Assembly: GCA_028825265.1 (NCBI GenBank)
Contig: JAPKAM010000002.1
Span: 4,420-68,419 of the forward strand
Source: Planctomycetota bacterium
GTDB taxonomy: Bacteria; Planctomycetota; UBA8108; UBA1146
Length of the DNA: 64,000 bases
Reading direction: 5' to 3'
Positions 8,938 to 33,717 of this stretch are shown in pieces (the first letter of the stretch is position 1; each line of letters opens with the position of its first letter). The position numbers were made by a program, and so were the translations under genes. Under the pieces are notes generated by a model. That model did not search any database, was not told where the DNA came from, and saw only the letters and a program-made list of their open reading frames with translations.

Positions 8938-8964
8938 TCAAACCCGCGCCCGAAAGGGGCCCAG

Positions 8965-10428: not shown

Positions 10429-10439
10429 TGAGATGACTT

Positions 10440-10967: not shown

Positions 10968-11034
10968 ATTATGGCCTCATCTTTTCAGAATTGAATTATT
11001 GCCCATTAAAAATCTGCCGACACGAGTCGCTCGA

Positions 11035-19601: not shown

Positions 19602-20549
19602 ATGGTCACGAGCCCGATTCACTATATCGACACTCACACCGCCGGCGAGCCGACCCGTGTGATCATCGGAGGGTTTCCCGATCTCGGTTCTGGCAGCATG
19701 GCAGATCAGAGAGATGTACTTCTACGCGATCATGACTCGCTTCGAGCCGGCATTGTTCGGGAGCCCAGAGGACATGAAGCGATGGTCGCCGCGCTGCTGG
19801 TCGAGAGTTCACTGTCGGACTGTGAGTCGGGTGTGATCTTCTTTAACAATGTAGGGGCTCTCGGAATGTGTGGCCATGGAGCGATGGGGGTTGTTGAAGC
19901 GCTCCGGCACATGGGACGCATCGAATCGGGGAACTGTCAGCTGGAAACTCCTGCGGGAGTCGTCGAGTTGCACCTGGGTGACGACGGCGAAATTGCCCTT
20001 CGCAATCTGTCCAGCCATCGAACTGTGGCAGATTGCACCGTGACTCTCGACGACGGGAACTCGGTGACCGGAGATATCGCATGGGGCGGAAACTGGTTCT
20101 TCATCACCGAGACCCCAGAGATCGAGGTGGATTCGAAACACATCTCTGAACTGACCGAAGCGGCCAGTCGCATTCGTGACGCACTCGATTCGGCAGGAAT
20201 CAGTGGGTCCGACGGTGAGAGAATCGATCACATCGAATTGCATCAGCCATTGCCGCCGGATCAGGGCGCAGGAGTCCGATCCTTCGTCCTTTGTCCGGGC
20301 CGGGAATGGGACCGTTCACCGTGCGGGACCGGTACCAGTGCCACGATGGCGTGTCAGTACCAGCGAGGATCGCTGCAAGAGGGGGACCGCTGGCTCCAGG
20401 TCGGAGTGCTGGGGACTCGCTTCGTGGGGTCCTTCGAGGTGGCAGGCGAAGGCATCGTGCCGACGATTCGCGGGCACGCTTCCTTGTGTGGTGAGGGAAC
20501 CCTGTACTTCCCGCCGGATGATCCCTTCCGGCATGGCATCGACCTGTAA
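19602..20549 (+). CDS. lhpA: 4-hydroxyproline 2-epimerase (proline racemase family)
   Basis: IDTHTAGEPTR; catalytic GMCGHG and DRSPCGTGTSA; Val in EPRGHEAMV and Cys in FVLCPG match Hyp epimerases rather than proline racemases. Confidence 0.88.
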   Translation: MVTSPIHYIDTHTAGEPTRVIIGGFPDLGSGSMADQRDVLLRDHDSLRAGIVREPRGHEAMVAALLVESSLSDCESGVIFFNNVGALGMCGHGAMGVVEALRHMGRIESGNCQLETPAGVVELHLGDDGEIALRNLSSHRTVADCTVTLDDGNSVTGDIAWGGNWFFITETPEIEVDSKHISELTEAASRIRDALDSAGISGSDGERIDHIELHQPLPPDQGAGVRSFVLCPGREWDRSPCGTGTSATMACQYQRGSLQEGDRWLQVGVLGTRFVGSFEVAGEGIVPTIRGHASLCGEGTLYFPPDDPFRHGIDL

Positions 20550-20582: not shown

Positions 20583-21671
20583 GTGCGCATCGCCATCGAC
20601 GCCACTGCTGCATGCACTCCCCGACCCACAGGGATCGGCAGATATACCGCCCAGTTGGCGCGGGCGCTGGACGATATAGGGTCAACGATTTCGCTCGGGA
20701 CCCGCTGTTCTCATCTGCACCGTCATCGACATCGATTGAGGATCCCCACGATTCGGAGCTTTTGGATCCAGGAACCGTGGTGGCCCGCGTGGGCTCGGCC
20801 GGATGTGGTCCATGTGACCGATTCTCGAGTGCCACGATGGAGATCTGCGAGAGTGGCGACGCTTCACGATGTGGTGCATCTACTTCCAGAGAAGAAGAGA
20901 GATTTCTACATTTCCACGCGGCAGTTTCGCGACAAGAAGCTTGCGGCATACCAGTCTCTGGCGAGTCAGTGTCATCGCATCATCGCAGTCAGCGAAACGA
21001 CGCGCCGCGATTTCCTGGAGGGCGTTGATTGCGATCCGAACAAGGTGGTTGTGGTCCATCATGGCATCGATCCGGTGTTCCGTCCGATTCCACCAGTGGA
21101 AGCCGCCCCCATCCTCGCTGCCCGAAAAATTCCCGAGGGTGCCATCATTTATGTTGGAGATCTTTCACACAGGAAAAACATCCCCGGGTTGATCGAGGGG
21201 TTTCTTGCCGCAGATCTGGGGGAGATCCCGCTGGTGATCGCCGGGGAGCCCTCATTTGGTGGAGATGAACTTCTCAGTCTGATCGAGAGAGAAGGACAGG
21301 GTCGAGTTCATCTGGTTGGTTGGCATGGTGACGATGTGTTGCCGGCGCTTTACTCGTCGGCTCGTGCACTGCTTTACCCAACTCACTACGAGGGATTCGG
21401 AATGCCGGTGCTGGAAGCGATGGCCTGTGACACGCCGGTGGTGATTTCCAATACTGGTGCCGCCCCTGAGATCGCTGGGGAGATGGCTGAGAAATGTGAT
21501 CCCGATGATCCAGCCTCGATCTCGGCGGCCTTGCACAGGGCGCTGGGTCATGAGCAGAAGGAAAAGGAACTGGCGCGGAAGCATGCAGAGACCTTTGACT
21601 GGCAAGCCTGTGCCCGGGAAACCGTGGACGTTTATCAGCAGGCGATCGAGGTCGCAGGCGGGGCCAATTGA
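20583..21671 (+). CDS. Glycosyltransferase family 4 (GT-B)
   Basis: PTGIGRY; IAVSETTRRD; RKNIPGLI; YEGFGMPVLEAMACDTPVV. Confidence 0.9.
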   Translation: MRIAIDATAACTPRPTGIGRYTAQLARALDDIGSTISLGTRCSHLHRHRHRLRIPTIRSFWIQEPWWPAWARPDVVHVTDSRVPRWRSARVATLHDVVHLLPEKKRDFYISTRQFRDKKLAAYQSLASQCHRIIAVSETTRRDFLEGVDCDPNKVVVVHHGIDPVFRPIPPVEAAPILAARKIPEGAIIYVGDLSHRKNIPGLIEGFLAADLGEIPLVIAGEPSFGGDELLSLIEREGQGRVHLVGWHGDDVLPALYSSARALLYPTHYEGFGMPVLEAMACDTPVVISNTGAAPEIAGEMAEKCDPDDPASISAALHRALGHEQKEKELARKHAETFDWQACARETVDVYQQAIEVAGGAN

Positions 21672-22801
21672 TGGCAAACCTCAAGGTGGTCATCGTTGGT
21701 GCGGGGGTGGTCGGCGTCTGCTGTGCCAGAACACTGGCTCGTTCCGGGGCCGAGGTGTTGGTGGTGGACCAGGGCGAGGCGGTGGGAGTTCGAGGGGGAA
21801 CCGCAGCGGGAATGGGGCACATCGTCGTCAACGATGGAGATGAAGCGGGATTGCAACTTTGCAAGCTCGGCAGGTCGATCTGGCGAGATGATTCACCCGA
21901 GATCGCAGGTGAGGACGGATTCATCGAAACCGGTACCCTCTGGATGGCTGAAGACGATGCCACCTTCGAAGAACTCGCCAGGTCTGCAGCGAGACTCGAA
22001 TCGGCGGGAATCAGTGTCGAGTTGCTGAAAGGGAAGTCCTTCAGCGATGTGGAGCCTGCCTTGGCCAGGGATCTGGTTGGAGGACTTCGGTTGCCTGAAG
22101 ATGGAGTCTTGTACGCCCCGGTAGTTGCCGCTGCCATGATGCAAGAGGCGAAGCAGATGGGGGCCACTTTTCGTCCACGGGTGACAGTCTCTTCGGTGGA
22201 AACTGGAATGGTCCGACTGGCCGATGGGAACTGCATCGGAGCCGATGCCATCGTGATTGCCTCTGGTTTGAATGCCCTTGATCTGCTTGAAGAATCGGGA
22301 ATCGAGGTGCCGATCGTTCCGCGCGAAGGCCAACTCGCTATCACTGCTCGTGGAACCCGGGTACTGACTCACCACGTGGTGGAGGCGGGATACCAGCAGG
22401 GGGCTCACGGTGTGGTGGAAGAAGCGGTGGCCTGTGCCATCTTGCCCAGATCCACTGGCCAGCTTTGTATCGGGTCGAGTCGTCGACCGAGGCAGGCCGG
22501 AGCGGTCGACCGGGAACTGATGGAGAAGATCATCGCTCGCTGTGATCGTTTCCTACCAGGGATCGGCAGATTGCCGATCCTGCGCTGTTGGAGCGGCACG
22601 CGGGCGGCGACTGCCGATTCGAGGCCCTTAATCGGTCCCGTTCCGGCCCAGCGCGGGGTTTGGATCGCCAGTGGATTCGAGGGGCTGGGGATCACCCAGG
22701 CTCCTGCGGCGGCTCAATTGATCAAGGATTCGATTTACGGCACGAGGAGCCCCATCGATCCTCGAGCGTGGGATCCGGCTCGAAGTATGACCACTTCTTG
22801 A
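21668..22801 (+). CDS. lhpB: D-hydroxyproline dehydrogenase beta (catalytic FAD) subunit, DAO family
   Basis: VVIVGAGVVG; TAAGMGHIVV; GHEG-like GFEGLGITQAP; genomic context of the Hyp pathway. Start TTG 21668 or ATG 21671. Confidence 0.8.
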   Translation: MMANLKVVIVGAGVVGVCCARTLARSGAEVLVVDQGEAVGVRGGTAAGMGHIVVNDGDEAGLQLCKLGRSIWRDDSPEIAGEDGFIETGTLWMAEDDATFEELARSAARLESAGISVELLKGKSFSDVEPALARDLVGGLRLPEDGVLYAPVVAAAMMQEAKQMGATFRPRVTVSSVETGMVRLADGNCIGADAIVIASGLNALDLLEESGIEVPIVPREGQLAITARGTRVLTHHVVEAGYQQGAHGVVEEAVACAILPRSTGQLCIGSSRRPRQAGAVDRELMEKIIARCDRFLPGIGRLPILRCWSGTRAATADSRPLIGPVPAQRGVWIASGFEGLGITQAPAAAQLIKDSIYGTRSPIDPRAWDPARSMTTS

Positions 22802-22897
22802 TCCGGGCAAAGCACAGGGCACGATGCAGCCGTTGACCCAGGGGTTCCCCGCGGTCAGACCGCTGGTGAATCGAACTCATCTCAGGAAGGACCACTG

Positions 22898-24304
22898 TTG
22901 CAGATCACGGTGACAGCGATCGAACTGGAACTGATGGAATGCAACACACGAATCCCATTCCGGTTCGGGGTGCATACTCTCACCGAGGCACCGATGGCGG
23001 TGGCCACTCTTCATGCCGAAACTTCCGATGGGACTCCCCTGGTTGGCTATACATCAGAATTGCTGGTGCCGCGCTGGTTCGAGAAGAATCTCGAGAGATC
23101 GGTCGAAGGTGATATCGAGTCGCTGGTAGATAGCATCCAGGTTGCAGGTCAGATTTTGCTCGATGGTACCAAGGCCTCTGTTTTTGATCATTACTGGAGA
23201 ACCTTTGAAGACCGAGTCCTGTCGGTCCCCGTCACTGCCGCTGATCGTTTGACCCGAGGGTTTGGGTGTGCGATCTGGGAACGAGCGATGATGGACGCCG
23301 CCTGTCGAGGTGTTGGTGTGTCCTTCATCGACGCTCTCGAGTGTGATCTGTTCAAGATCAAGCCCGATCGTTTTCATCCCGGTCTTGCGGGTTGGAAGTT
23401 TTATCCGGCACCCTTGCCAACGACGATTGCGGTTCGGCACACGGTTGGTTTGCTCGATGATCTAGAGGAGGCTTCGGAAGGAGCTCCAGAAGATGGTCTT
23501 CCGGTGACGCTGGTCGAGGATATTCGTCGTCACGGTCTAGCCTGGTTCAAGGTCAAGGTCGGAGGGGATCCGCAGCAGGATCTGGAGCGGCTCCATCGAG
23601 TGGCCCAAGTTCTCGAGCGGGAAGCCTCGCCTGGATACCGGGTGACTCTGGATGGGAACGAGCAGTACGCCGATCCAGCGCAGCTGGCGCTGGTACTGGA
23701 GGATTTGTCAGCGAAGTCGCCCGGGTCCACCTTCATCGAATCGATCGTCAGTATCGAACAACCGGTGCCACGCTCCTTGACCTTCGAGGAGAGCGCTCAT
23801 CCCGGCGAACTGGCAAAGTTCGCACCCGTCATCATCGATGAGGCAGACCATGGCCCGGAGGCTTTTCCGGAGGCACTTCGCCTTGGATATCGGGGGGTCT
23901 CTGCCAAGAACTGCAAGGGCGTCGCGCGTTCGATCGCTCACCAGGGTCTGTGCGACATCCACCAAGGAGCGGCTTTCATCAGCGGTGAGGATCTGACCAA
24001 TTTACCACCGTGGGGATTGCATCAGGACTTGCTGACGGTGGCGGCACTGGGGTTGCACCATGTCGAACGAAATGGCCATCACTACTTCAGGGGGCTCGAT
24101 CATCTTCCAGACTCGGAGGTCGCCACCCTGGTGAAGGATCATCCAGATCTCTACCGAGGGATCGGGGACGGAGCCGAACTTCATATCGAAGACGGAAATC
24201 TTTCGATTCGATCTCTCGATTGCGAAGGCTATGGCTGCACCGTCGAACCGGCGGCTCACCAGCGACGTTCGGTGCTGGCCAAACGAGCGGAAGAAAAGGG
24301 ATGA
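22898..24304 (+). CDS. Enolase-superfamily protein of unknown specificity
   Basis: PFRFGVHTLTEAP N-terminus; FKVKVG; metal-ligand segments TLDGNEQ, SIEQP, IIDEAD; KNCKG. Confidence 0.75.
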   Translation: MQITVTAIELELMECNTRIPFRFGVHTLTEAPMAVATLHAETSDGTPLVGYTSELLVPRWFEKNLERSVEGDIESLVDSIQVAGQILLDGTKASVFDHYWRTFEDRVLSVPVTAADRLTRGFGCAIWERAMMDAACRGVGVSFIDALECDLFKIKPDRFHPGLAGWKFYPAPLPTTIAVRHTVGLLDDLEEASEGAPEDGLPVTLVEDIRRHGLAWFKVKVGGDPQQDLERLHRVAQVLEREASPGYRVTLDGNEQYADPAQLALVLEDLSAKSPGSTFIESIVSIEQPVPRSLTFEESAHPGELAKFAPVIIDEADHGPEAFPEALRLGYRGVSAKNCKGVARSIAHQGLCDIHQGAAFISGEDLTNLPPWGLHQDLLTVAALGLHHVERNGHHYFRGLDHLPDSEVATLVKDHPDLYRGIGDGAELHIEDGNLSIRSLDCEGYGCTVEPAAHQRRSVLAKRAEEKG

Positions 24305-25761
24305 AGATCAGATCTCCGAACAAGTACAAGGATGCAGCCTCCTTCCGTGCTCGCTTGAAGGAGATCGACGAACAGTTGGACCTCGATGACGAGGTGGAAT
24401 CTCCAGGACCGCTCGGGTCATCACTGGAGAAGGGGGGCTGGTCTCTCTCCAACCGATTTGCAGTGCATCCGATGGAGGGTTGGGACGCCCATCGTGATGG
24501 ATCGCCATCGCCGGAGACACTCCGGCGCTGGCGACGCTTCGGAGAGAGTGGGGCTGCATTGATTTGGGGCGGTGAGGCGTTCGCAGTTGTGGAGGATGGC
24601 CGGGCCAATCCGAATCAACTGTTCCATAGCGATTCCGAGAAGAGTTGCCGGGCGCTGGAGTCGCTGCGACAGTCCATCGCTTTCGGCCATGATGCGATCG
24701 GAATGGAAGCTCCCACTGATTCGATGGTGGGTTTACAACTGACTCACTCAGGGCGTTGGTCTCGACCGACCCCGGCGGGTCCGTCACCGAGGATTGCATT
24801 TCAGCATCCGATCCTCGATGCGAGAGTCGCAGCAACTCCTCAACAACTGCTCGACGATGGCGAACTCGAATCCATCGCAGAGCGCTACATCGAGGCGGCG
24901 GTATGCGCTCAGAAGGCGGGTTTCGATTTCGTCGACATCAAGGCGTGTCACGGGTACCTGTTGCACGAGTTGCTGTCGGCGAGAACAAGACCCGGTCGAT
25001 ATGGCGGAGATCTACACGGTCGCAGTCGACTGTTGAGAGAATTGATCGCAGCGGTCCGGAGTGCCGCACCGGGACTGGGAATCGCAGTGCGCCTTTCGGT
25101 CACCGATGTGATTCCCTTCAAGAAATCAGAACTGGGTGAGGGAGAAGCGGACTGGCCCGATGGTGAAATCTACCCTTATGGCTTTGGCATCGATCCTTCA
25201 GACCCACTCAACCCAAACTGGACTGAGCCGCTGCAATTGATCGCGTTGTTACAAGAGGTCGGCATCGAATGGCTCAACCTGACCATCGGTTCGCCCTACT
25301 GGTGTCCTCATCGTCAGAGGCCCGCGCAATACCCTCCCAGTGACGGCTATCCGCCTCCGGAAGATCCACTGGTGGGAGTCGCAGCGCATCTCCAGGCGGC
25401 AAGAGCGGTACGACAGGCATTCCCAGATCTGGGTTTGGTCGGCACCGGCTGGACCTATCTGCAGGAGTGGTTACCGGCGGTGGCCCAGTATGAGATCCGC
25501 AAAGGATTTCAGGATGTCATCGGCCTCGGAAGATCGATGCTCTCCTATCCAGAGTTACCCAGGGATGTCATCCACGGCCGTACGATGCCGAAGAAACTGG
25601 TGTGCAGAACTTTCAGTGACTGCACTACCGCACCGAGAAATGGATTGTTGAGCGGTTGTTTTCCGCTCGATGATTATTACAAGTCGCACCCCGCCGCAGC
25701 GGAGTTGAAATCCGCCAAGGCGAGGTCCAGGCAGATCGCCAGAGAAGGGGAGAACCATTGA
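24301..25761 (+). CDS. NADH:flavin oxidoreductase (old yellow enzyme family), atypical
   Basis: NRFAVHPMEGWD; GLQLTHSGR; DIKACHGYLLHELLS; YGGDL..RSR; GLGR. ATG 24301 overlaps the upstream stop (ATGA). Confidence 0.85.
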   Translation: MKIRSPNKYKDAASFRARLKEIDEQLDLDDEVESPGPLGSSLEKGGWSLSNRFAVHPMEGWDAHRDGSPSPETLRRWRRFGESGAALIWGGEAFAVVEDGRANPNQLFHSDSEKSCRALESLRQSIAFGHDAIGMEAPTDSMVGLQLTHSGRWSRPTPAGPSPRIAFQHPILDARVAATPQQLLDDGELESIAERYIEAAVCAQKAGFDFVDIKACHGYLLHELLSARTRPGRYGGDLHGRSRLLRELIAAVRSAAPGLGIAVRLSVTDVIPFKKSELGEGEADWPDGEIYPYGFGIDPSDPLNPNWTEPLQLIALLQEVGIEWLNLTIGSPYWCPHRQRPAQYPPSDGYPPPEDPLVGVAAHLQAARAVRQAFPDLGLVGTGWTYLQEWLPAVAQYEIRKGFQDVIGLGRSMLSYPELPRDVIHGRTMPKKLVCRTFSDCTTAPRNGLLSGCFPLDDYYKSHPAAAELKSAKARSRQIAREGENH

Positions 25762-27182
25762 GTGAACCAGAAGCCGATTCCCAGAATTCCATCGACCTTC
25801 CGATGGTGGCTCCACCCGATCCGGTTGCTCTGGCCGAGGAAAAGAAGTGGCTCACTTCGCTAGAATCTGCACCCATCACGAAGCGCTGGGGCGCTTTTCT
25901 CCGGCGAGGTGGTCCTGGCTATCTACAGAGTTCTCTGACCCTCGGAGGGGGCACTGCGGCTGCGACCTTGATGGCCGGTGGAGCCTTCGGATACCAATTA
26001 CTGTGGGTGGCGCCACTCTCGATGCTACTTGGGCTGGCCGTGTTGTCGGCGGTTGCACACCAGACCCTTTCGACCGGCAAGCGACCATTGGCGGCGATCC
26101 GCGAGCATGCGGGACCCTTCTTTGCCTTCGCCTTCATCGCCGGTGCCGTGCTGTCGAGTGTGATCTGGCACTTTGCTCAGTACGCACTCGCCTCGGCAGC
26201 CATCGAAGACATTGGACTCGTCAGCGAGATCGGAATCTCGCGCGGGACCGGTGGTTTACTGGTGCTCGGGTGGGCGATCATCTGGTCGACCACCTATGGG
26301 CGATCTCCCGCCTTGCTGAAACTGTTCGAGCGCAGCATGCAGGTGATGGTGTGGATGATCGTGTTGTGTTTTGCAGTGGTCGTGGCGAAAACAGGAATCA
26401 GCGATGTGGGTGCATTTCTTTCCGGCTTCATTCCAGGAGGTGTCGGCGAGATTTATACCCCTGACGGGGATGAGTCGAAGTCGGTGGACGCCCTGAGCAT
26501 AGTGGTGGCTGGATTGGCCGCAGCGATCGGAGCCAACATGGTTTTTCTCTATCCTTACTCGCTGCTGGCTAGGGGCTGGGGCAGGGAGCATCGCTCTCTT
26601 GCGAGATTCGATCTGTTTGCCGGAATGTTCGTGCCGTATCTGTTGACGACCACCCTCATCGTGGTGGCGGCAGCCAGTACCTTCGGTCCCGGTGGGATCT
26701 CGTTTCCTGGCAAGGGATTCGCTCCCATCGATGCGGCAGAGATCCTCGGCGGTACCAGCGCTTCGCGCATCCTCTTTGACCTCGGATTGCTGGGAATGGT
26801 GACCAGCAGTATCACCATGCACATGATTTGTTGCGGATTTGCAGCCTGTGAAACCCTCGGCTGGCAAGTCGGTTCAAAACGGTTCCGATTGGCTTGCCTG
26901 CTGCCAACACCCGGTATTCTGGGTGCATTCTACTGGGGTGACATGGCGATCTGGATCGCCGTCCCTACGACCATCCTGACCGGATTCTTGTTGCCAGCAG
27001 TTTACATCGGGATCCTCAAGATGCAGCGATCCAAGGAGTATCTCGGTGAGGATCGGCCGCAAGGCCCCAAGGCGATGCTGTGGCAGGGATTGATCCTGCT
27101 CGCCACCTTGGTGCTGAGTGCGTTCTTGATCTGGAAGACAGCCACGGCAGTGCCCGGCTGGTTAGAACAACTGACCGGATGA
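25758..27182 (+). CDS. NRAMP-like (APC/LeuT-fold) membrane transporter
   Basis: About 11 hydrophobic helices; GPGYLQSSLTLGGG; AGGAFGYQLLWV, the NRAMP G...GY.LLW pattern; canonical DPGN absent. Confidence 0.75.
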   Translation: MSEPEADSQNSIDLPMVAPPDPVALAEEKKWLTSLESAPITKRWGAFLRRGGPGYLQSSLTLGGGTAAATLMAGGAFGYQLLWVAPLSMLLGLAVLSAVAHQTLSTGKRPLAAIREHAGPFFAFAFIAGAVLSSVIWHFAQYALASAAIEDIGLVSEIGISRGTGGLLVLGWAIIWSTTYGRSPALLKLFERSMQVMVWMIVLCFAVVVAKTGISDVGAFLSGFIPGGVGEIYTPDGDESKSVDALSIVVAGLAAAIGANMVFLYPYSLLARGWGREHRSLARFDLFAGMFVPYLLTTTLIVVAAASTFGPGGISFPGKGFAPIDAAEILGGTSASRILFDLGLLGMVTSSITMHMICCGFAACETLGWQVGSKRFRLACLLPTPGILGAFYWGDMAIWIAVPTTILTGFLLPAVYIGILKMQRSKEYLGEDRPQGPKAMLWQGLILLATLVLSAFLIWKTATAVPGWLEQLTG

Positions 27183-28357
27183 AGATCGAACTCCCAAACC
27201 CCGATGGGGAATCGGTCTGGCTGGAAGACGGATTGCTCGCAAGTGAGCCGCAACCGGCTGCCGCAGATCCGGTTCGGATCGCCTATGCTGCGGCTCATAT
27301 CATCCTGAAGGATGACGCCACTCCACGATCTAGCGCTGCAGATGCCATCGAGATGGTCGACTGGGACCAGACGATGGCGTTTCGCCAGCATCTGGCCGCT
27401 GAGGGATTCGGTATTGCGGAGGCGATGGATACCGCCCAGCGATTCGAACTGGGTTGGCCGGCCGCACGTAGGCTGATCGAACAGTGTGGGGAACTTCAAT
27501 TGGAAACAGGCTTTATAGCGGGAGCCGGAGCAGATCAGTGCGACGAGGTGTTGGATCCCGCGACGTTAATCGATGCCGTGGTTGAGCAAGTTCATATCAT
27601 CCAGCAAGCCGGTGGCACTGCGATCATCTTGCCGATGCCGTGGCTCTGTCGCTGGAATTGCGACGAGCAACAATACGTTTCGATCTACCGATCCATCATC
27701 GAGCAGAGCGAGGGGCCTTTATTTCTTCACTGGCTCGGTCCGATGTTCCTGGCAGAATTGGAAGGTTACTTTCCCGGAGACAGTCTCGATCAAATTCTCA
27801 GCATCGATTCCGACAAGGTTCGTGGGGTCAAGATGTCGATGCTGGACCACGATCTGGAGATCGGGGTACGAAAGCGGTGTCGGGAGCGTGGCCAGATCGT
27901 GCTGACTGGAGACGATCATCACTTCTGTGATCTCATCGCAGGAGATGGCGAGATCCCCACTCAGAGCGTCACCATCGGCGACCGTCAGGTTCCCGATGGT
28001 GATTTCAGTCATGCCTTGCTGGGAGTACTCGATGGGATTGCCGTTCCTGCAGGACGAGCCTTGCGTCACCTGGCGGCAGGAGACCTCGCCGGGTATCGCC
28101 GCTGGATGCAACCGTGCGAGGACTACGGTCAGCGAGTCTTTGCGGCACCGACCCACCTCTACAAGGCGGGGCTCGCCTTTACCGCCTGGCTCAATGGTCA
28201 CCAGCGGCAACCGATGCTACTGAATCGTATCGATCTGGATCGTGACCTCGAACACCTGCTGGATGTGGCCCGCCTGGCTTCACTGGCGGGAGCGATCATA
28301 GATGCCGGGATGGCGGCGGAGCGCATCGAGTTATTGATGGCGGGCGTACACCGATGA
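27179..28357 (+). CDS. DUF993 family protein (DHDPS-like TIM barrel)
   Basis: RIAYAAAHI; DWDQTMAFRQHL; GIAEAMDTAQR; LHWLGPMF; GVKMSMLD; TGDD; HALLGVLD. ATG 27179 in an ATGA overlap. Confidence 0.85.
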   Translation: MKIELPNPDGESVWLEDGLLASEPQPAAADPVRIAYAAAHIILKDDATPRSSAADAIEMVDWDQTMAFRQHLAAEGFGIAEAMDTAQRFELGWPAARRLIEQCGELQLETGFIAGAGADQCDEVLDPATLIDAVVEQVHIIQQAGGTAIILPMPWLCRWNCDEQQYVSIYRSIIEQSEGPLFLHWLGPMFLAELEGYFPGDSLDQILSIDSDKVRGVKMSMLDHDLEIGVRKRCRERGQIVLTGDDHHFCDLIAGDGEIPTQSVTIGDRQVPDGDFSHALLGVLDGIAVPAGRALRHLAAGDLAGYRRWMQPCEDYGQRVFAAPTHLYKAGLAFTAWLNGHQRQPMLLNRIDLDRDLEHLLDVARLASLAGAIIDAGMAAERIELLMAGVHR

Positions 28358-29892
28358 GTGGCGATCGAAAGGTAAAGATTCGGCTCGATGGTGTCTGGGT
28401 CGAGGTGACCGAAGGTGTCCAACTGGCCGCCGCCTTGCTCGAACTGGGATTCGTTTCGCTGAGAAGATCTCCGACTGGTCAGCCACGGGGAGCCTTGTGT
28501 GCGATGGGGAGTTGCCACGAGTGTCGTGCGGTGATCGACGGTCACCGGGGGGTGAGAAGCTGCTTGATCCGGGTTCGAGATCAGATGCGGGTGGAGACGG
28601 AACGAGATCTGGGACCGTCGCCACTCGGGGCTCTGGTGATCTCGCCGTCGCAGCGGCAAGTGGCTGACCTGGTGGTCATCGGTGCTGGACCGGCAGGATT
28701 GGCGGCGGCCAGCGCGGCGGCAGAACTGGGGATGGACGTGCTGGTGGTTGACGAGTCTCCCGCTCCCGGAGGAAGGATCTGGGCTCACCTGAAGCGGGCC
28801 CCGGCAGAGGCCCGCAGCTGGATCGAGCGAGCGGAAAGAGCCGGAGTTCGCAGGCTTCACGGATACAGCGTCACCGATGGGGAACCGGGGCGGATCCAGG
28901 CGACATCGGTCGCGAGCGGAGAATCGGTGGAGATCGAGTGCGATCGAATGGTCATCGCCACCGGAGCGAGGGAACGCTTCCTGCCATTTCCTGGCTGGAC
29001 TCTTCCTGGAGTGGTCGGAGCCGGAGCACTGCAATCTCTCATCAAGGGTGGATTGGATGTAAAGGGCAAGCGACTGGTGGTGGCGGGAACCGGCCCGTTA
29101 CTGCTGGCAGTGGCTCAGCTGGCACGGCAGCAAGGTGCTTCGGTATTACTGGTCGAGCAGGCTTCCTACTTCAATCGAATTCCACTGCTGTTGAGAGTGC
29201 TGCAATCCACAACTCGAGTGCGACAGACGTGGGCTCTGTGGAAGTCGCTTCGGGATGTCGAAAAACTCTCATCGAGCTGGCCAGTCAAGGCGGAGGGGCA
29301 TCAGAGGGTCGAGCGGGTTCATCTCCGCACCGAGAATGGAATTCGTATCGAAGAGGTCGATGGACTGGCGGTTGGATTCGGACTGATTCCGGAGACCAGA
29401 GTCGCCGAAGGGCTCGGCTGCCGGATCCTCGATGATGGTTGCGTTGCGGTCGATCATCAGCAGTGGACCGGGGTCGAAGGAGTTTATTGCGCCGGTGAAC
29501 CGACCGGGATCGCCGGTTGTGAAGCCGCCATCGACAGCGGTCTGGTGGCAGGAATCAGCGCGGCGGGCCGGGCTCCCAGGGCACACCTGAGGGCACGAGT
29601 GAGGCGCCACCAGGTGTGGGGTGCGGCACTCGAGGCGGCTCATTCCCTTCGTCCGGAGCTGTTTCACCAGGGGCAGGGAGATGTGGTGCTTTGTCGATGC
29701 GAGGATGTGACCGCAGGGAGCGTCGATCGATCTGTTTCCAGCCGGGAGGCGAGAGTCCTGTGCCGGATCGGCATGGGACCCTGCCAGGGAAGGGTCTGCA
29801 TGGCGATTCTGCAGGCACGGGGAGAGATTCGATCCGATTCGGTGCGGCCACCTTGGTCGACCAGCCCCGGCAAAGGTGAAATCTCGCGGTGA
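28354..29892 (+). CDS. Fused 2Fe-2S + FAD/NAD(P)-oxidoreductase subunit (LhpF+LhpE-like D-Hyp dehydrogenase gamma-alpha fusion)
   Basis: N-terminal CAMGSCHECRAVIDG...VRSC; VIGAGPAGL; ATGARERFLPFPGWTLPGV; C-terminal CRCEDV...GMGPCQGRVC. Confidence 0.82.
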   Translation: MSGDRKVKIRLDGVWVEVTEGVQLAAALLELGFVSLRRSPTGQPRGALCAMGSCHECRAVIDGHRGVRSCLIRVRDQMRVETERDLGPSPLGALVISPSQRQVADLVVIGAGPAGLAAASAAAELGMDVLVVDESPAPGGRIWAHLKRAPAEARSWIERAERAGVRRLHGYSVTDGEPGRIQATSVASGESVEIECDRMVIATGARERFLPFPGWTLPGVVGAGALQSLIKGGLDVKGKRLVVAGTGPLLLAVAQLARQQGASVLLVEQASYFNRIPLLLRVLQSTTRVRQTWALWKSLRDVEKLSSSWPVKAEGHQRVERVHLRTENGIRIEEVDGLAVGFGLIPETRVAEGLGCRILDDGCVAVDHQQWTGVEGVYCAGEPTGIAGCEAAIDSGLVAGISAAGRAPRAHLRARVRRHQVWGAALEAAHSLRPELFHQGQGDVVLCRCEDVTAGSVDRSVSSREARVLCRIGMGPCQGRVCMAILQARGEIRSDSVRPPWSTSPGKGEISR

Positions 29893-29958: not shown

Positions 29959-30855
29959 TTGGACCGTGGATCCCTCATCATCATCTTCGCCCTCGCTGCA
30001 CTGGCCATCGGCATCGCTGGCCTCGTGTCCACCGATGAATTCCCACGCACCACTGCAATCGTCTCTTCGGATGGAAGTTCAGGGAACCGAGTCGTTTCAC
30101 TGGCTCCTTGCATCACCGGAACATTGCTGGCGATCGGTGCGGAACAATCCATCTCGTTGATCAGTGACTACTGCCCTCAGATCGATGGCGTGGGCAGGGG
30201 AGGGACGGCACTGTCTCCCGACCTGGAACGAATTGTTCGAAGCGGTTCTAGAATCTTGCTGGTCAGGAGTGCCGTAGGGTTGCCGAGGGATGAACTGGCA
30301 CGAGTAGGAGAAACGATTGAACTGCCCTGGTCATCGGTGGAGCAAGTGGCGGGTAGCATCCGTCGCATCGGTTCTGTAGTGGAACGGGAATCTTCAGCGA
30401 ATCAACTGGCAGATCGTTTCGAGCAGGTACTCGCCGGGTCGGGAGTGGCTGAAGATGCACCACGAGTGTTGCTAGTCATCGGAACTGAACTGGACGCCTC
30501 CGGGGGACCCTGGGTCATCAAGCCAAACTCGATTCACGGAGCGGTGCTAAGGGCTGCAGGGTTTCGTAACGCCATCGAGAAACCGATGTCCGGTACGCCG
30601 CAGATTTCCTTCGAACGGCTGCTGGCCATCGATCCCGACATCATCCTGCACCTGAGTAGTGCACCAGAGGAAGAGAGATCGCAGTCCGTGCTCGATCGCT
30701 ATCGACACCTCGCAGGGTTGGGTGCTGTGACCGGTGGTGCAGTGGGGCAAGTCCTCGGGCCCAGGATTCTCGATGAAGGACCGGAACTGCTCGACCTGGT
30801 CGGGGCCATCCAACTGGAGGTGGAGCGATTGGCGACTGGGGGTGCACGGTGGTAA
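29959..30855 (+). CDS. ABC transporter substrate-binding protein (BtuF/FhuD helical-backbone type)
   Basis: N-terminal membrane anchor; RVVSLAPCITGTLLAIG; PDLERI; ISFERLLAIDPDII; GP..L C-terminal motif. Confidence 0.85.
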   Translation: MDRGSLIIIFALAALAIGIAGLVSTDEFPRTTAIVSSDGSSGNRVVSLAPCITGTLLAIGAEQSISLISDYCPQIDGVGRGGTALSPDLERIVRSGSRILLVRSAVGLPRDELARVGETIELPWSSVEQVAGSIRRIGSVVERESSANQLADRFEQVLAGSGVAEDAPRVLLVIGTELDASGGPWVIKPNSIHGAVLRAAGFRNAIEKPMSGTPQISFERLLAIDPDIILHLSSAPEEERSQSVLDRYRHLAGLGAVTGGAVGQVLGPRILDEGPELLDLVGAIQLEVERLATGGARW

Positions 30856-31628
30856 CCCTGTTGGCACTGGATCAGGCCACGGTCATTGCTGGCGATCGGC
30901 CGATTCTCGACCAGTTGACGCTAGAAGTGGGTGAAGGGCAGATGGTCGCCATCATCGGCCCCAACGGCTCGGGAAAGAGCACTCTACTGCGGGCGTTGCT
31001 TGGACTGGTGGCCCTCGATTCTGGCAGTGTCCAGATCGAAGGGCGACCGCTGACGGATCTCACGGCGCGACAGCGTGCGGCCTCGATGGCGTGGCTGCCC
31101 CAAGATAGTCTTCCTGCGGAAAGATTGCGGGTCGAGGATGTGGTGGCTTCCGCCCGCTTCCGTTTCAGCGAATCTCGTCAAGATGGCATCGAGGCGGCGC
31201 ATCGAGCGCTCGAAGATGCGGGTGCCGCTTCGCTCGTCGACCGTTGGATCAACGAACTCTCCGGTGGTGAACGACAGCGCATCGAACTGGCCTCGATGCT
31301 GGCACAGGAATCGAAGTGCTGGCTCCTCGATGAACCGGCCAATCATCTGGACCCGGTGTGGCGCGCGAGGACGCTCAAGTTCCTGTCAAAGCGTCTCGAG
31401 CAGGGAAATACCGTGCTGGTGGTGCTTCATGATGTACATCTGCTGGGACACATCGATGCCGTCGAGACGAGAGTGGTTGGTCTGCGAGAAGGCAAAATCG
31501 CATGGCAAGGAAGGCTGGGAGATGGAGATCTCGGCGAGGGATTGAAGAGGGTTCATGGTATCCCTTTCGAGCGCGCAGTCGCGGGTGATCGAGAGTACTG
31601 GATCCCTGGTGAGGAGCCGGTCGAATGA
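30849..31628 (+). CDS. ABC transporter ATP-binding protein (BtuD/FecE type)
   Basis: Walker A GPNGSGKST; signature LSGGERQR; LLDEP; VLHD. Confidence 0.92.
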   Translation: MVTLLALDQATVIAGDRPILDQLTLEVGEGQMVAIIGPNGSGKSTLLRALLGLVALDSGSVQIEGRPLTDLTARQRAASMAWLPQDSLPAERLRVEDVVASARFRFSESRQDGIEAAHRALEDAGAASLVDRWINELSGGERQRIELASMLAQESKCWLLDEPANHLDPVWRARTLKFLSKRLEQGNTVLVVLHDVHLLGHIDAVETRVVGLREGKIAWQGRLGDGDLGEGLKRVHGIPFERAVAGDREYWIPGEEPVE

Positions 31629-32587
31629 TGGCTCTCTTACGCTGGCTGCCCTGGGTCGTGTTGGCGATCGTGATCGCGCTGGCGACCGCATGGATCGGTC
31701 CATCACTGGACGATGAGCACGGGCAGTGGATATTGCGCGAGTTGCGACTCCCTCGTGCTTTGGCCGGCGCCATGGTCGGGGCGGTGCTGTCAGCCGCAGG
31801 AGCGGTGGTGCAGATCCTGCTGCGCAATCCTCTGGCGACGCCCAGTACCATCGGAACCACCGCGGGGGCCACCCTGGGAGTGCTGGCCGCACTGGTGCTC
31901 GGTAGCGGGAGTACCTGGATGGGACTCCCGATACTCCCTGCTGCGGCATTTGCAGGTGCTCTGTTGGTGACGCTGGTCATCGCTTCGGTGGCGGCGCGGG
32001 ATCGTGCTCGCACCGAGGATGTGTTGCTGGCTGGTATCGCCCTGACGCTGGCGACTGGGGCGATGGCGTCGGGATTACGGCTCGGCATCGATCAGGTGAC
32101 TTCTCTTAGTGCGCTGCGCTGGTCACTCGGGAGCCTGACCATCCTTGGTCCCGATCGAATCTCGATGCTGACTCCCTTTGTGGTGATCTCCCTGGCTGGC
32201 ATGTTGTGGTTGATTCGGCCCCTTGAAGTTCTGGTCTCCGGCATCGAGAGAGCGCGGACACGTGGTGTCGAGGTGACCAGGGTGAGAACCTTGGGACTCG
32301 GTCTTGCATCTCTCGGGGTGGCGGCGTGCGTCGCGACCTGCGGCCCCATCGCATTTGTCGGATTGATCTGCCCTCACCTCGTGAAACGAGTTCTGGGTTC
32401 TGCACCGAGGATCTTGCTGCCGGCCTCGATCTTGCTTGGGGTGGTGTTCTTGCCGCTGTGCGATTCGATCGGAAGAGTACTCTGGGAACAACGCGAAATT
32501 CCAGTCGGTGTCATCACTGCGGCTTTGGGGGCTCCGGTACTGTTCATTTTGGTGGTTCGTCGGGGTCGGATGTCTTCGAGGAGTTGA
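31625..32587 (+). CDS. ABC transporter permease (BtuC/FecCD family)
   Basis: ELRLPRAL; QILLRNPLATP; GPIAFVGLICPH; EIPVGVITAALGAP. Confidence 0.92.
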   Translation: MMALLRWLPWVVLAIVIALATAWIGPSLDDEHGQWILRELRLPRALAGAMVGAVLSAAGAVVQILLRNPLATPSTIGTTAGATLGVLAALVLGSGSTWMGLPILPAAAFAGALLVTLVIASVAARDRARTEDVLLAGIALTLATGAMASGLRLGIDQVTSLSALRWSLGSLTILGPDRISMLTPFVVISLAGMLWLIRPLEVLVSGIERARTRGVEVTRVRTLGLGLASLGVAACVATCGPIAFVGLICPHLVKRVLGSAPRILLPASILLGVVFLPLCDSIGRVLWEQREIPVGVITAALGAPVLFILVVRRGRMSSRS

Positions 32588-32766: not shown

Positions 32767-33717
32767 ATGAGTATTGAATCAAATCAATCGATGACCTGGG
32801 CAGGGGTGATGTCCGCCATCACGACCCCGTTCGATGAATCTGGGCAGGTCGATTTCGCATTCTTATCGCTGCACTGCCGCTGGCTGATCGATCAGGGAGT
32901 GGCCGGGATTATTCCCTGCGGATCTCTTGGGGAGGGTGCAACTCTCTCTTTCGCTGAGAAGGAGCGGGTTATCGATACCGTGGTCCGTGCAGCAGATGAT
33001 CGAGTCCCGGTCATTCCAGGAATCGCTGCAGCCTCGACCCAGGAAGCGGGGAGACTCGCGGCAAGTGCCAGCGTGATGGGTGCCCGCGGATTGATGGTTT
33101 TGCCACCGTACATCCACAAGGGACCATTTTTTGAAGTCGAAGCTCATGTCGAGGCCGTGATCGGCGCGACCGATCTACCCTGCATGCTCTACAACAATCC
33201 CATCGCCTATGGAGTTGATTTTGAGCCGAGTTGGATTGCGGGTCTCGCCGAGCGGGCTCCAAATTTGATGGCCGTGAAGGATTCGAGCGGAGATTCTCGA
33301 CGAATCACAGCGGTTCATTCGTTGGTCGGAGATCGGCTGGCGCTGTTTGCCGGATTGGATGACATGGTGGTGGAAGCGGTTCGACAGGGAGCCGTCGGCT
33401 GGATTGCCGGCCTGGTCAATGCTTTGCCGATGGAATCGGTGGTCTTATTCGACAAGGCGATGCAGGGAATTGAAGATCCAGCCGCCGCTCGAGAAGCCGA
33501 TCGAATCTACCGCTGGTTCTTGCCACTGTTGCGACTCGACTGCGTTCCAGAGTTTGTCCAGTTGATCAAGTTGGTGCAGCAAGAGGTGGGAATGGGATCT
33601 GACAATGTACGTGCTCCCCGATTCCCGGCGATGGGTGCTCTTCGTGAGGAAGCGATGACCGTAATTCGTTCATCTCTGGCGACCAATCCGTTTGCAGATG
33701 TGAAGGAGCAGCGATGA
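32767..33717 (+). CDS. lhpC: Delta1-pyrroline-4-hydroxy-2-carboxylate deaminase (DHDPS family)
   Basis: WAGVMSAITTPF; GSLGEGATLS; YNNP; Schiff-base Lys in VKDSSGD; GWIAGLVNA; adjacent to KGSA dehydrogenase. Confidence 0.82.
   Translation: MSIESNQSMTWAGVMSAITTPFDESGQVDFAFLSLHCRWLIDQGVAGIIPCGSLGEGATLSFAEKERVIDTVVRAADDRVPVIPGIAAASTQEAGRLAASASVMGARGLMVLPPYIHKGPFFEVEAHVEAVIGATDLPCMLYNNPIAYGVDFEPSWIAGLAERAPNLMAVKDSSGDSRRITAVHSLVGDRLALFAGLDDMVVEAVRQGAVGWIAGLVNALPMESVVLFDKAMQGIEDPAAAREADRIYRWFLPLLRLDCVPEFVQLIKLVQQEVGMGSDNVRAPRFPAMGALREEAMTVIRSSLATNPFADVKEQR

Follow-up and report, generated by a model that had tools for sequence, protein, structure and literature searches.

A four-gene Planctomycetota cassette of enolase-superfamily, OYE-family, Nramp-fold and DUF993 proteins lies within a hydroxyproline gene cluster and is probably an autonomous module

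Enolase-superfamily dehydratases, DHDPS/NAL-family lyases and sugar dehydrogenases together make up the logic of the non-phosphorylative Entner–Doudoroff, Weimberg/Dahms and glucarate/uronate pathways. The archaeal npED route (gluconate dehydratase and KDG aldolase), the Weimberg/Dahms routes, D-glucarate/galactarate degradation (GlucD and KdgD) and oxidative uronate degradation (Udh, Gci and KdgD) share their enzyme logic with the cassette described here: a dehydratase or cycloisomerase of the enolase superfamily, a Schiff-base lyase or dehydratase of the DHDPS/NAL family, a single dehydrogenase and a transporter. Unlike these pathways, the cassette has neither a lactonase nor an aldehyde dehydrogenase, and its OYE flavoenzyme and Nramp-fold permease are parts of none of them. 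The trans-4-hydroxy-L-proline (Hyp) pathway (Watanabe et al.) comprises an epimerase, a heteromeric D-Hyp dehydrogenase, a Pyr4H2C deaminase and a KGSA dehydrogenase, with gene letters that vary among papers (PMC5144071).

In the window, the whole 64,000-nucleotide stretch of Planctomycetota DNA that was analysed, the genes flanking the cassette match the Hyp pathway gene for gene. All features given below lie on the + strand. Upstream are a 4-hydroxyproline 2-epimerase gene (19602–20549; Pfam Pro_racemase, 286 bits; the NCBIfam 4-hydroxyproline epimerase model scores 364 bits and does not reach its cut-off of 450) and the lhpB-type gene for the DAO-family FAD subunit of D-hydroxyproline dehydrogenase (21668–22801; Pfam DAO, 200 bits; synteny with loci L096 and L097). 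Downstream are lhpEF (28354–29892), encoding the fused 2Fe-2S/FAD subunit of this dehydrogenase (Pfam Fer2_4 and Pyr_redox_2), whose homologues carry the JGI name 'D-hydroxyproline dehydrogenase subunit alpha', then DHDPS (32767–33717) and Aldedh (33714–35294), both called by Pfam/NCBIfam. None of the four cassette genes has a counterpart in the Hyp pathway, as originally predicted, and L096 and L097 have the complete pathway cluster but lack these genes.

Gene order and distribution of the cassette

Five genes are chained at 22898–29892 by 4-nt stop/start overlaps at four junctions (ATGA at 24301, TTGA at 25758, ATGA at 27179 and ATGA at 28354), a layout that the ORF coordinates and junction sequences confirm; the domain calls of the original prediction agree with our Pfam results. 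The four genes preceding lhpEF encode an enolase-superfamily protein (ENO; 22898–24304, 468 aa, TTG start; MR_MLE_C at 30.6 bits, barely over the cut-off), an OYE-family FMN oxidoreductase (24301–25761, 486 aa; Oxidored_FMN, 81 bits), an Nramp-fold permease (25758–27182, 474 aa, TTG start; Nramp, 84 bits) and a DUF993 protein (27179–28357, 392 aa; DUF993, 289 bits). The OYE start is taken as the conserved ATG at 24301; the mechanical open reading frame opens earlier, at 24010. A 96-nt spacer (22802–22897) separates the stop codon of lhpB from the start codon of ENO; it forms the left boundary of the cassette and contains a Shine–Dalgarno-like motif, AGGAAGGA, 9 nt 5′ of the ENO TTG. At the right boundary of the insertion, the lhpEF ATG overlaps the DUF993 stop. 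Given that the spacer parts the cassette from lhpB, the chaining of the cassette is confined to the downstream gene, and the translational coupling of the module to the Fe-S/FAD dehydrogenase gene is seen in the ATGA of this last junction.

Among 66 informative loci of other species, defined as those with enough sequence, the ENO–OYE–Nramp–DUF993 order is kept in 43 (40/63 plus three further loci), and the 4-nt overlaps are mostly conserved among the cassette loci. As this order and most of the overlaps recur in 40 or more loci of other species, the arrangement is far beyond chance. The four genes thus form a real orphan module, as had been proposed: conserved, uncharacterised and widespread in Planctomycetota. 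No further recurrent neighbour of the cassette was found in the neighbourhoods of the compared loci.

The lhp genes adjoin the cassette in only 4 of the 66 loci (L001, L006, L007 and L008), all from the window's own clade with an ENO identity of at least 72%; in the next-nearest relatives (ENO identity 57–64%) the cassette is free-standing. The sister lineages L097 and L095 have the window's synteny, but in them lhpEF comes straight after lhpB, without the cassette. The empty site of L097 reads Topo-Fpg-IDH-HypE-GT4-lhpB-lhpEF-PBP-ABC/FecCD-DHDPS-ALDH-EamA-ClpB, with lhpB overlapping lhpEF by 8 nt, and in L095, where the backbone is partial, lhpB abuts lhpEF. L096 has the canonical contiguous cluster HypE-lhpB-lhpEF-DHDPS-ALDH. 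An lhpEF-type gene lies directly 3′ of lhpB in both L096 and L097, with the DHDPS and Aldedh pair 3′ of it; lhpEF is thus a flank of the insertion, outside the cassette. From the empty sites in L097 and L095 it follows that the cassette was inserted, and the occurrence of lhp clusters without the cassette and of the cassette without lhp genes means that each module exists without the other.

The best explanation, to which we assign a probability of about 0.6, is that 22898–28357 is an autonomous Planctomycetota cassette that was inserted between lhpB and lhpEF in the ancestor of the clade and acts outside hydroxyproline catabolism. The original prediction of an uncharacterised module coupled to lhpEF is supported, whereas its assignment to a branch of imino-acid or hydroxyproline catabolism is not, given the confinement of lhp linkage to one clade and the empty sites in its sister lineages. 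On a reading of this kind the cassette would take up and process an imino acid in modified form (such as 3-Hyp, N-methyl-Hyp or Hyp betaine), feeding the lhp pathway, by means of an HpbD/c3LHypD-like ENO, a StcD/TMADH-like amine-oxidising OYE and a deaminase-like DUF993 protein. The physical and translational chaining to lhpEF and the arrangement kept in four related genomes favour such a route, but every other context is free-standing or of the sugar/carboxylate type, and we regard it as highly improbable. The proposed genome-neighbourhood comparison, when run, gave outside the window's clade essentially the outcome that argues against a link to hydroxyproline. In contrast to the hydroxyproline-betaine pathway, neither a Rieske nor a StcD-type demethylase is present here, and cassette contexts elsewhere are sugar-type.

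Predicted active sites of the four proteins

ENO is a deep-branching, divergent enolase-superfamily enzyme. Its catalytic residues, comprising the predicted metal ligands D252, E287 and D314 and the predicted bases K218/K220 (KxK on β2) and K337 (β6), are invariant in 33 homologues. A sequence search of the PDB gave no significant match; Foldseek with the AF2 model (pLDDT 92) retrieved muconate-lactonizing-type (MLE), mandelate racemase-type (MR) and dipeptide-epimerase structures (E ~1e-17 to 1e-15, TM ~0.75, 12–17% identity). Judged from the invariant residues and the model, ENO has an intact fold and retains an intact MLE-type active site, and at 12–17% identity to any solved member it fits no characterised subgroup. 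ENO has the superfamily and the K(β2)/K(β6) base arrangement in common with HpbD and cis-3-hydroxy-L-proline dehydratase (c3LHypD), and the imino-acid route gains from this K/K architecture of the MLE subgroup, home of both. However, ENO has no specific sequence similarity to these two enzymes: the c3LHypD model scores 15.9 bits over 37 residues only, against an NCBIfam cut-off of 500. Enolase-superfamily enzymes with the K(β2)/K(β6) arrangement also include epimerases of amino-acid derivatives.

The OYE flavoenzyme shares the FMN TIM barrel, the catalytic Tyr/His of the H-G-Y motif and the GLGR phosphate-binding motif with YqjM-type ('thermophilic-like') Old Yellow Enzymes and FadH/TMADH. In PDB alignments its K214-x-x-H217-G-Y219 stands where YqjM-type enzymes have H-x-x-H-G-Y, so that the leading His of the pair that binds substrate is replaced by Lys, and it carries an insertion of ~120 residues. 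Three C-terminal Cys (C435, C441 and C453) are invariant in a 30-sequence alignment. The Fe-S motif of FadH/TMADH has four Cys, C-x2-C-x3-C-x11-C, whereas the cassette enzyme has C-x5-C-x11-C. The position of these Cys where FadH/TMADH-type enzymes have their Fe-S motif would suit an amine-oxidising enzyme of the imino-acid route, but the cassette enzyme lacks the second domain (FAD/NAD) that StcD/TMADH-type enzymes possess.

The permease belongs to the Pfam family, and has the LeuT-like fold, of the Nramp/NRMT divalent-cation transporters; its best PDB match is the Mg2+ transporter EleNRMT (7qia, E 1e-6), the closest solved structure, followed by canonical Nramp at E 4e-5. The metal-binding TM1 Asp/Asn and TM6 Met/His are nevertheless lost in 26 of 26 aligned members, that is, in the whole cassette subfamily: TM1 reads 'LGGG(T/S)' in place of canonical 'DPGN', and TM6 has 'GxNMxFxYPY' instead of 'MPH', with Q57/S58/T61 and N260/Y265/Y267 as conserved replacements. 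Unlike Nramp/NRMT, the permease gene belongs to an enzyme operon, at the slot of the carboxylate or sugar uptake systems of relatives. These residues bear on a non-catabolic role, either synthesis or salvage of a small molecule (cofactor, compatible solute or envelope precursor) or metal supply and handling. The Nramp-like protein would then work as an exporter or as an atypical carrier of cations, to the benefit of the Mg/Mn-dependent ENO and of an OYE that may contain Fe-S. In favour of this role, the cassette has a wide distribution and is self-contained throughout, genes adjoining it in most Planctomycetota loci include no Pfam regulator-type family, and Nramp proteins are otherwise exclusively cation transporters. 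Loss of the metal site speaks against it, as does the replacement of the Nramp-like gene in proteobacterial versions by solute-binding uptake systems (TTT, TRAP, ABC) with a TetR repressor, typical of catabolic operons; we consider it very unlikely.

The DUF993 protein is a DHDPS/NAL-like TIM barrel in which K218, invariant, sits on predicted strand β6 ('VRGxKxSxLD') ahead of a TGDD motif. A PDB search matched it to 4DNH (E 7.6e-48), and Foldseek with the AF2 model (pLDDT 93) gave 4DNH at TM 0.83, all others among the 50 matches listed being DHDPS/NAL-family structures (E ~3e-8, TM 0.7–0.8). Judged by a count of strands in the model, K218 may form the Schiff base. By hhalign the protein has no significant similarity to the window's DHDPS; DUF993 is a separate family. 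As had been noted, DUF993 has no assigned reaction: 4DNH, the one relative with a solved structure, carries the deposition name 'uncharacterized protein', we found no paper mentioning DUF993 or PF06187, and no characterised homologue was found for either DUF993 or ENO.

Relatives outside Planctomycetota and a putative pathway

The ENO and DUF993 genes also occur as a pair in Burkholderiales MAGs and Sinorhizobium meliloti, where their neighbours are Gfo/Idh/MocA (GFO) dehydrogenases, transporters for sugars or carboxylates, and tetronate genes; no lhp genes were found beside ENO in Burkholderiales MAGs, cultured Sinorhizobium or Rhizobium, where sugar/sugar-acid genes stand instead. The Burkholderiales loci read ENO-GFO-DUF993 and are accompanied by carboxylate transporters (TctC/TctA/DctP/DctM). 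One such cluster (L061) also includes 3-oxo-tetronate kinase and 2-oxo-tetronate isomerase, which at 637 and 375 bits, respectively, exceed their NCBIfam cut-offs. TauD-family dioxygenase and NitT/TauT-type ABC genes adjoin this version as well, which could hint at a substrate other than a sugar, for instance a sulfonate. Rhizobium plasmids show the order ABC - IolB-like - glycosyl hydrolase - TIM barrel - hydroxyacid dehydrogenase - ENO. The S. meliloti SMc04132 cluster, source of 4DNH (a 'hypothetical protein' from structural genomics), likewise has DUF993 (33% identity) adjoining a homologue of ENO that shares its signature motifs at 36% identity; an oxidoreductase and a transporter are present too, as in the cassette. 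Its order is sugar ABC - TetR - GFO - DUF993 - ENO - sugar-phosphate isomerase/epimerase - GFO, so that Gfo/Idh/MocA, a sugar-phosphate isomerase/epimerase TIM barrel, a CUT1-type sugar ABC system and TetR replace the OYE and Nramp-like genes. This cluster is uncharacterised as well: in a PhaR regulon table its proteins appear only as 'uncharacterized protein' and 'putative oxidoreductase' (PMC12542648).

A Gfo/Idh/MocA gene also sits in the OYE slot of L023 and L030; this family, the redox partner in cassette relatives, is that of several sugar 1-dehydrogenases. To our knowledge OYE enzymes do not oxidise sugars, and the OYE and GFO enzymes may therefore catalyse different steps.

An alternative is a convergence of functions, in which the cassette would turn a uronate-, aldarate- or pentonate-type acid into alpha-ketoglutarate semialdehyde and DUF993 would play the part of KdgD or L-KDA dehydratase; the cassette would then be retained in the lhp operon because the terminal aldehyde dehydrogenase (33714–35294) is shared with the Hyp route, both feeding 2-oxoglutarate. 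This semialdehyde is the product of three DHDPS-family enzymes, KdgD, L-KDA dehydratase and the deaminase of the Hyp pathway, and PMC5144071, citing Watanabe 2007 and 2012, has acid-sugar and Hyp routes converging on it. The top Foldseek matches of ENO include galactarolactone cycloisomerase (4hpn), and the best, though weak, similarity of the downstream ALDH is to 2,5-dioxovalerate/KGSA dehydrogenases. However, the Foldseek matches do not separate subgroups, none of the ~60 loci outside the clade has an ALDH gene closer than 10 kb to the cassette, nor does S. meliloti, and the adjacency of cassette and lhp genes had a single origin. Such convergence is thus unlikely.

For the autonomous cassette, the best reading is a module of uptake, dehydration (or epimerisation), redox and Schiff-base cleavage, most likely degrading a sugar-acid-like compound or related carboxylate. 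Initially, the permease, lacking the Nramp metal site, would import a sugar-acid- or hydroxy-acid-type organic carboxylate. ENO would bind its carboxylate via Mg2+ (D252/E287/D314), with K220 or K337 taking the alpha-proton, and dehydrate or epimerise it to a 2-oxo-3-deoxy or unsaturated acid. The flavoenzyme would perform one two-electron redox step, its slot being taken in some relatives by the Gfo/Idh/MocA NAD(P) dehydrogenase. Finally, K218 of DUF993 would form a Schiff base with the 2-oxo acid, followed by cleavage or dehydration as in DHDPS/NAL-family aldolases and dehydratases, yielding pyruvate or another central metabolite. Through its insertion, the cassette would be co-transcribed with the lhp genes in the window's lineage. 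The ATGA coupling to lhpEF is kept in all four lhp-linked genomes, so some selected co-expression of this autonomous cassette with lhpEF is possible.

Gene organization around the cassette

Five co-directional genes on the plus strand are chained by overlapping stop/start codons (ATGA, TTGA, ATGA and ATGA), just as originally predicted. The first four make up a cassette (22898–28357) that encodes a divergent enolase-superfamily protein, ENO (22898–24304, TTG start; Pfam MR_MLE_C, 30.6 bits, barely over threshold), an OYE flavoenzyme (24301–25761, ATG start; Oxidored_FMN, 81 bits, cut-off 27), an Nramp-like permease (25758–27182, TTG start; Nramp, 84 bits) and a DUF993 protein (27179–28357; PF06187, 289 bits against a gathering cut-off of 24). 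The fifth gene, lhpEF (28354–29892; Fer2_4 plus Pyr_redox_2), encodes a fused Fe-S/FAD subunit. The Pfam matches agree with the earlier domain calls for all five genes. The OYE start was set at the ATG of 24301, where homologues begin; the mechanical ORF opens at 24010.

The cassette lies within a single co-directional array spanning 17.6–36.2 kb of the window. Upstream are genes for isocitrate dehydrogenase (IDH), an O-methyltransferase, 4-hydroxyproline epimerase, a GT4 glycosyltransferase and a DAO-type FAD enzyme (lhpB, 21668–22801), the last separated from ENO by a 96-nt spacer. Downstream, lhpEF is followed by a Peripla_BP_2/ABC/FecCD transporter, a DHDPS-family gene, an aldehyde dehydrogenase (ALDH) and an EamA permease. 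Judged from domain content, homologue naming and cluster composition, lhpB and lhpEF are the predicted subunits of a heteromeric D-hydroxyproline dehydrogenase. Homologues of the Fe-S/FAD partner carry the source name D-hydroxyproline dehydrogenase subunit alpha, and the window's set of hydroxyproline catabolic (lhp) genes, with an epimerase, a DHDPS-type deaminase and ALDH beside the dehydrogenase, matches those of two loci from other genomes, L096 and L097. A promoter and terminator scan of 17–37 kb gave no site above background, and an Rfam search of the same interval gave no riboswitch able to name a ligand. The overlapping codons, together with the lack of a terminator or promoter signal, are compatible with a probable single transcript for the cassette and lhpEF.

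The GT4 glycosyltransferase gene (20583–21671), an odd member for a catabolic cluster, sits between the epimerase gene and lhpB, and holds the same position in the cassette-free loci L095 and L097. The siderophore/cobalamin-type transporter (Peripla_BP_2, ABC ATPase and FecCD permease; 29959–32587), an unusual type for a hydroxyproline cluster, lies between lhpEF and the DHDPS-type gene and is also present in L001, L006, L008, L095 and L097. The EamA permease gene (35291–36226) is the last of the hydroxyproline cluster. Elsewhere in the window, peptidase genes for an S9/S33-type alpha/beta hydrolase (11038–12837, minus strand), a peptidase-MA/TPR protein (39351–42188, plus strand) and an M28+M1+PDZ protein (57483–60878, plus strand) would fit a peptide- or collagen-scavenging life around the hydroxyproline cluster. 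A WD40-containing PSCyt1/PSCyt2/PSD1 protein of 1675 aa, followed by a DUF1501 protein, is encoded at 3910–10428, a gene pair that is a hallmark of Planctomycetota and so agrees with the taxonomic placement indicated by the source names of the homologues.

A conserved cassette inserted once among hydroxyproline genes

ENO homologues are numerous and mostly planctomycetal, with relatives in at least 593 genomes when each species was represented by one genome. The family is discrete, comprising 319 clusters (50% identity, E ≤ 1e-30) among 1.84 billion representatives. The window proteins were compared by tblastn with 63 non-redundant loci having at least 5.6 kb past the ENO start. The order ENO–OYE–Nramp–DUF993 was found in 40 of them; a Gfo/Idh/MocA gene, of an NAD(P) dehydrogenase family, fills the OYE slot in two, and five have the layout ENO–Gfo/Idh/MocA–DUF993. 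Three loci beyond the 63 (L089–L091) carry the full cassette as well. Across cassette loci the 4-nt overlap is the commonest junction type. That the four genes are a real, conserved and translationally chained module is supported. The genes on either side of the cassette vary between loci. Clustering of the flanking ORFs of 85 loci, with ORF calling that was crude in GC-rich loci and gave rise to shadow ORFs, returned only the four cassette genes and the Gfo/Idh/MocA gene as recurrent. The ENO–DUF993 pair is present in Planctomycetota, Alpha- and Betaproteobacteria and some MAGs labelled Myxococcales or Deltaproteobacteria. The survey shows that the four genes form an autonomous cassette, whose redox partner and transporter are interchangeable among relatives.

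Several variants were observed. In two Phycisphaerales MAGs, a Gfo/Idh/MocA gene occupies the place of OYE between ENO and the Nramp-like gene (L023, 11501–~12700; L030, 4839–~6050); its products share 57–60% identity with the Burkholderiales protein, which looks like a swap of the redox partner by non-orthologous replacement. In L029 and L047, from MAGs labelled Myxococcales and Deltaproteobacteria, OYE and a TetR gene are divergent from ENO–Nramp-like, and no DUF993 was detected in the 2.2–8.6 kb available downstream of the Nramp-like gene. In L087 a Transposase_mut gene (9749–11038) sits between ENO and OYE, and the called OYE is cut to 370 aa. Proteins with a PF06439 (3-keto-disaccharide-hydrolase) domain lie near the free-standing cassette in four of about 10 Pfam-annotated loci (L087, 4926–7874; L089, 8596–9351; L090, 16470–20099; L091, 3619–7143). 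Three of the four are ~1000–1200 aa long, two of these three with cytochrome c domains, and in L087 and L090 the gene adjoins the cassette or is one gene off. This proximity may be due to chance, since the domain is very common in Planctomycetota.

The original prediction read the cassette as a hydroxyproline or imino-acid branch. Such a reading is not supported: lhp genes lie near the cassette in only 4 of 66 informative loci (L001, L006, L007 and L008). These four form a single clade and reflect one event, since their ENO proteins are 72–88% identical to that of the window and their synteny with the window reaches far past the cluster. The next-nearest cassettes (57–64% ENO identity) are free-standing. 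Conversely, L097 has the full backbone of the window, from topoisomerase, Fpg, IDH, epimerase, GT4, lhpB and lhpEF (57% identity to the Fe-S/FAD subunit of the window) through PBP, ABC/FecCD, DHDPS, ALDH and EamA to ClpB, with lhpB overlapping lhpEF and the cassette absent. The same cassette-free arrangement is seen in L095 over the part of the backbone that it covers, and L096 has a compact canonical cluster of epimerase, lhpB, lhpEF, DHDPS and ALDH, also without the cassette. Given the free-standing cassettes and the cassette-free lhp clusters, each module exists, and presumably works, alone. These comparisons show that the link to the hydroxyproline genes arose once, by insertion of the cassette. 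The GC content of the cassette (0.57–0.59) and its GC3 (0.61–0.67) are like those of the flanks and thus give no sign of recent foreign origin. The cassette therefore seems to have moved among related genomes and not to have been acquired recently from a foreign source.

Outside Planctomycetota, no lhp genes were found in the Burkholderiales, S. meliloti, Rhizobium plasmid or haloarchaeal plasmid contexts examined, which likewise speaks against the imino-acid reading. In Burkholderiales MAGs, ENO–Gfo/Idh/MocA–DUF993 is accompanied by TetR, TctC/TctA and DctP/DctM carboxylate uptake, an ABC system and a TauD-family dioxygenase; one of these loci (L061) encodes a 3-oxo-tetronate kinase and a 2-oxo-tetronate isomerase, both over NCBIfam cut-offs, and has a threonate-dehydrogenase-like gene. 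In Sinorhizobium meliloti, a sugar ABC transporter, TetR, Gfo/Idh/MocA, a DUF993 protein of the type crystallized as 4DNH, ENO, a sugar-phosphate isomerase/epimerase and a second Gfo/Idh/MocA are found, with 33% (DUF993) and 36% (ENO) identity to the window proteins. On Rhizobium plasmids, ENO follows an ABC transporter, an IolB-like isomerase, a glycosyl hydrolase, a TIM-barrel protein and a hydroxyacid dehydrogenase, and on a haloarchaeal plasmid it lies amid sugar-modifying genes. These neighbours point to sugar or carboxylate catabolism. The imino-acid model would hold only as a lineage-specific recruitment, which we consider improbable.

A sulfoquinovose-type sulfo-ED route, suggested by the Burkholderiales TauD and NitT/TauT-type genes, was set aside because these genes are absent from the planctomycetal and rhizobial versions. 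Among the rhizobial records, the one labelled in PLSDB as S. meliloti Ak57 plasmid pSymB (CP090106.1) is 3.72 Mb long with SMc-type genes, and is probably a chromosome under the wrong label.

Predicted properties of the four proteins

The AF2 model of ENO (pLDDT 92) displays a capping domain and a modified TIM-barrel fold. By sequence, ENO has no significant match in the PDB. A Foldseek search retrieved MLE, MR and AEE structures (E 1e-17 to 1e-14, target TM about 0.75, 12–17% identity), the model resembling, to much the same degree, muconate-lactonizing enzymes, mandelate racemases, dipeptide epimerases, galactarolactone cycloisomerase and dehydratases of acid sugars. The metal ligands D252 (β3), E287 (β4) and D314 (β5) are invariant in 33 sequences and are located at the ends of the predicted strands 248–252, 283–287 and 311–313. 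With this fold and the three carboxylate ligands, the model places ENO in the enolase superfamily. Furthermore, K218-x-K220 on β2 (strand 216–220), K337 just past β6 (strand 333–336) and an E-R-N-G-H-H-Y-F motif are kept in 33 homologues. ENO thus has an intact metal site and two lysines placed as in the MLE subgroup, a subgroup assignment by residue pattern alone, as Foldseek does not split MLE from MR. Of the proposed likeness to HpbD and cis-3-hydroxy-L-proline dehydratase, shared superfamily membership holds, but specific similarity does not: the NCBIfam HProlDhtase model, whose cut-off is 500, gives ENO 15.9 bits, over residues 206–242 only.

The first 270 residues of OYE align with YqjM-type enzymes, and an insertion of roughly 120 residues leaves only positions 11–232 of the 342 in the Pfam profile aligned. 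H217-G-Y219 is conserved, retaining the catalytic Tyr, whereas K214 stands where YqjM-type enzymes have their first substrate-binding His. Three invariant C-terminal cysteines lie at residues 435–453 (25603–25659), in the motif C-R-T-F-S-D-C-T-T-x-P-R-x-G-x-x-S-G-C. Beyond the barrel, FadH/TMADH-type enzymes have an Fe-S motif with four Cys; the three-Cys motif of OYE may be a cluster, a metal site or a remnant. A split FadH-like enzyme, composed of OYE and the downstream Pyr_redox_2 protein, was rejected because lhpEF occurs without the cassette and the cassette without lhpEF.

The closest solved relative of the Nramp-like permease is the Mg2+ transporter EleNRMT (E 1e-6), and the NCBIfam Nramp models score it under their cut-offs. 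In all 26 aligned members, the Asp-Pro-Gly-Asn of TM1 is replaced by LGGG(T/S), and the Met-Pro-His of TM6 is absent, the segment reading GxNMxFxYPY. The permease has lost the Nramp metal site, keeping none of its metal-binding residues; given the lost TM1 and TM6 motifs, a divalent metal is an unlikely substrate.

By sequence, DUF993 matches only the structural-genomics entry 4DNH in the PDB (E 7.6e-48). Its model (pLDDT 93) also retrieves 4DNH first in Foldseek (TM 0.83), and all further matches listed are structures from the DHDPS/NAL family (E about 3e-8, TM 0.7–0.8). The Schiff-base Lys of the DHDPS/NAL superfamily lies on the sixth barrel strand. In DUF993, the invariant K218 (V-R-G-x-K-x-S-x-L-D), followed by a T-G-D-D motif, is on the sixth predicted strand (214–220). 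An hhalign comparison of the DUF993 alignment with the window's single DHDPS sequence was not significant, so the proposed kinship rests on the fold. Both 4DNH and the S. meliloti gene behind it are annotated as uncharacterised; in the literature searched, the locus tags of that cluster occur only in a regulon table, again as uncharacterised (PMC12542648). Literature searches found nothing on DUF993/PF06187, nor on the combination of Planctomycetes, enolase superfamily, OYE and Nramp.

Putative catabolic route

Non-phosphorylative sugar-acid routes (npED, Weimberg/Dahms, glucarate/uronate) pair an enolase-superfamily dehydratase with a DHDPS/NAL-family lyase, and by analogy the cassette appears to follow the same logic. 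In the putative route, the permease would import an organic carboxylate, and ENO would take the alpha-proton from the Mg2+-bound carboxylate, then dehydrate or epimerise the substrate. The flavoenzyme, or the Gfo/Idh/MocA enzyme in relatives, would perform one two-electron step, and DUF993 would make an imine with a 2-oxo acid before cleaving or dehydrating it. One reading, at a probability of roughly 0.35, is that the cassette encodes a pathway, widespread among Planctomycetota and not described so far, for breaking down a carboxylate abundant in the environment, for instance a sugar acid from algae, with an organic substrate for the permease, a Schiff-base lyase in DUF993 and a new subgroup in ENO.

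As an attractive sub-hypothesis, the cassette may yield alpha-ketoglutarate semialdehyde (KGSA). The hydroxyproline route also passes through this intermediate, which would rationalise the retention of the cassette beside ALDH. Acid-sugar and hydroxyproline routes converge on KGSA, according to a passage of PMC5144071 that cites Watanabe et al. As a general rule, however, this is countered by the lack of an ALDH gene near the cassette elsewhere.

In summary, the cassette has not been characterised previously; its proteins come from known superfamilies and are combined in a familiar style of pathway. Its membership of the putative operon here stems from a single insertion rather than a shared pathway, which corrects a tempting guilt-by-association annotation, and the sister genomes with an "empty site" prove the cassette and lhp modules separable. 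It is of interest mainly as a clearly delimited target in the search for new functions, and for its unusual Nramp-fold permease. As an enzyme-function target it is compact, with no characterised member in the ENO or DUF993 family, one orphan crystal structure (4DNH) at hand and genetically tractable hosts that have both genes (S. meliloti) or just ENO (R. leguminosarum). If that reading of the cassette is true, no Nramp-fold transporter before this permease would have been shown to carry an organic substrate instead of a metal ion, DUF993 (with 4DNH) would receive a first function, as a Schiff-base lyase, and the ENO clade would add a functional subgroup to the enolase superfamily. The substrate, once found, would give a Pfam DUF a function and could reveal a carbon source of marine Planctomycetota.
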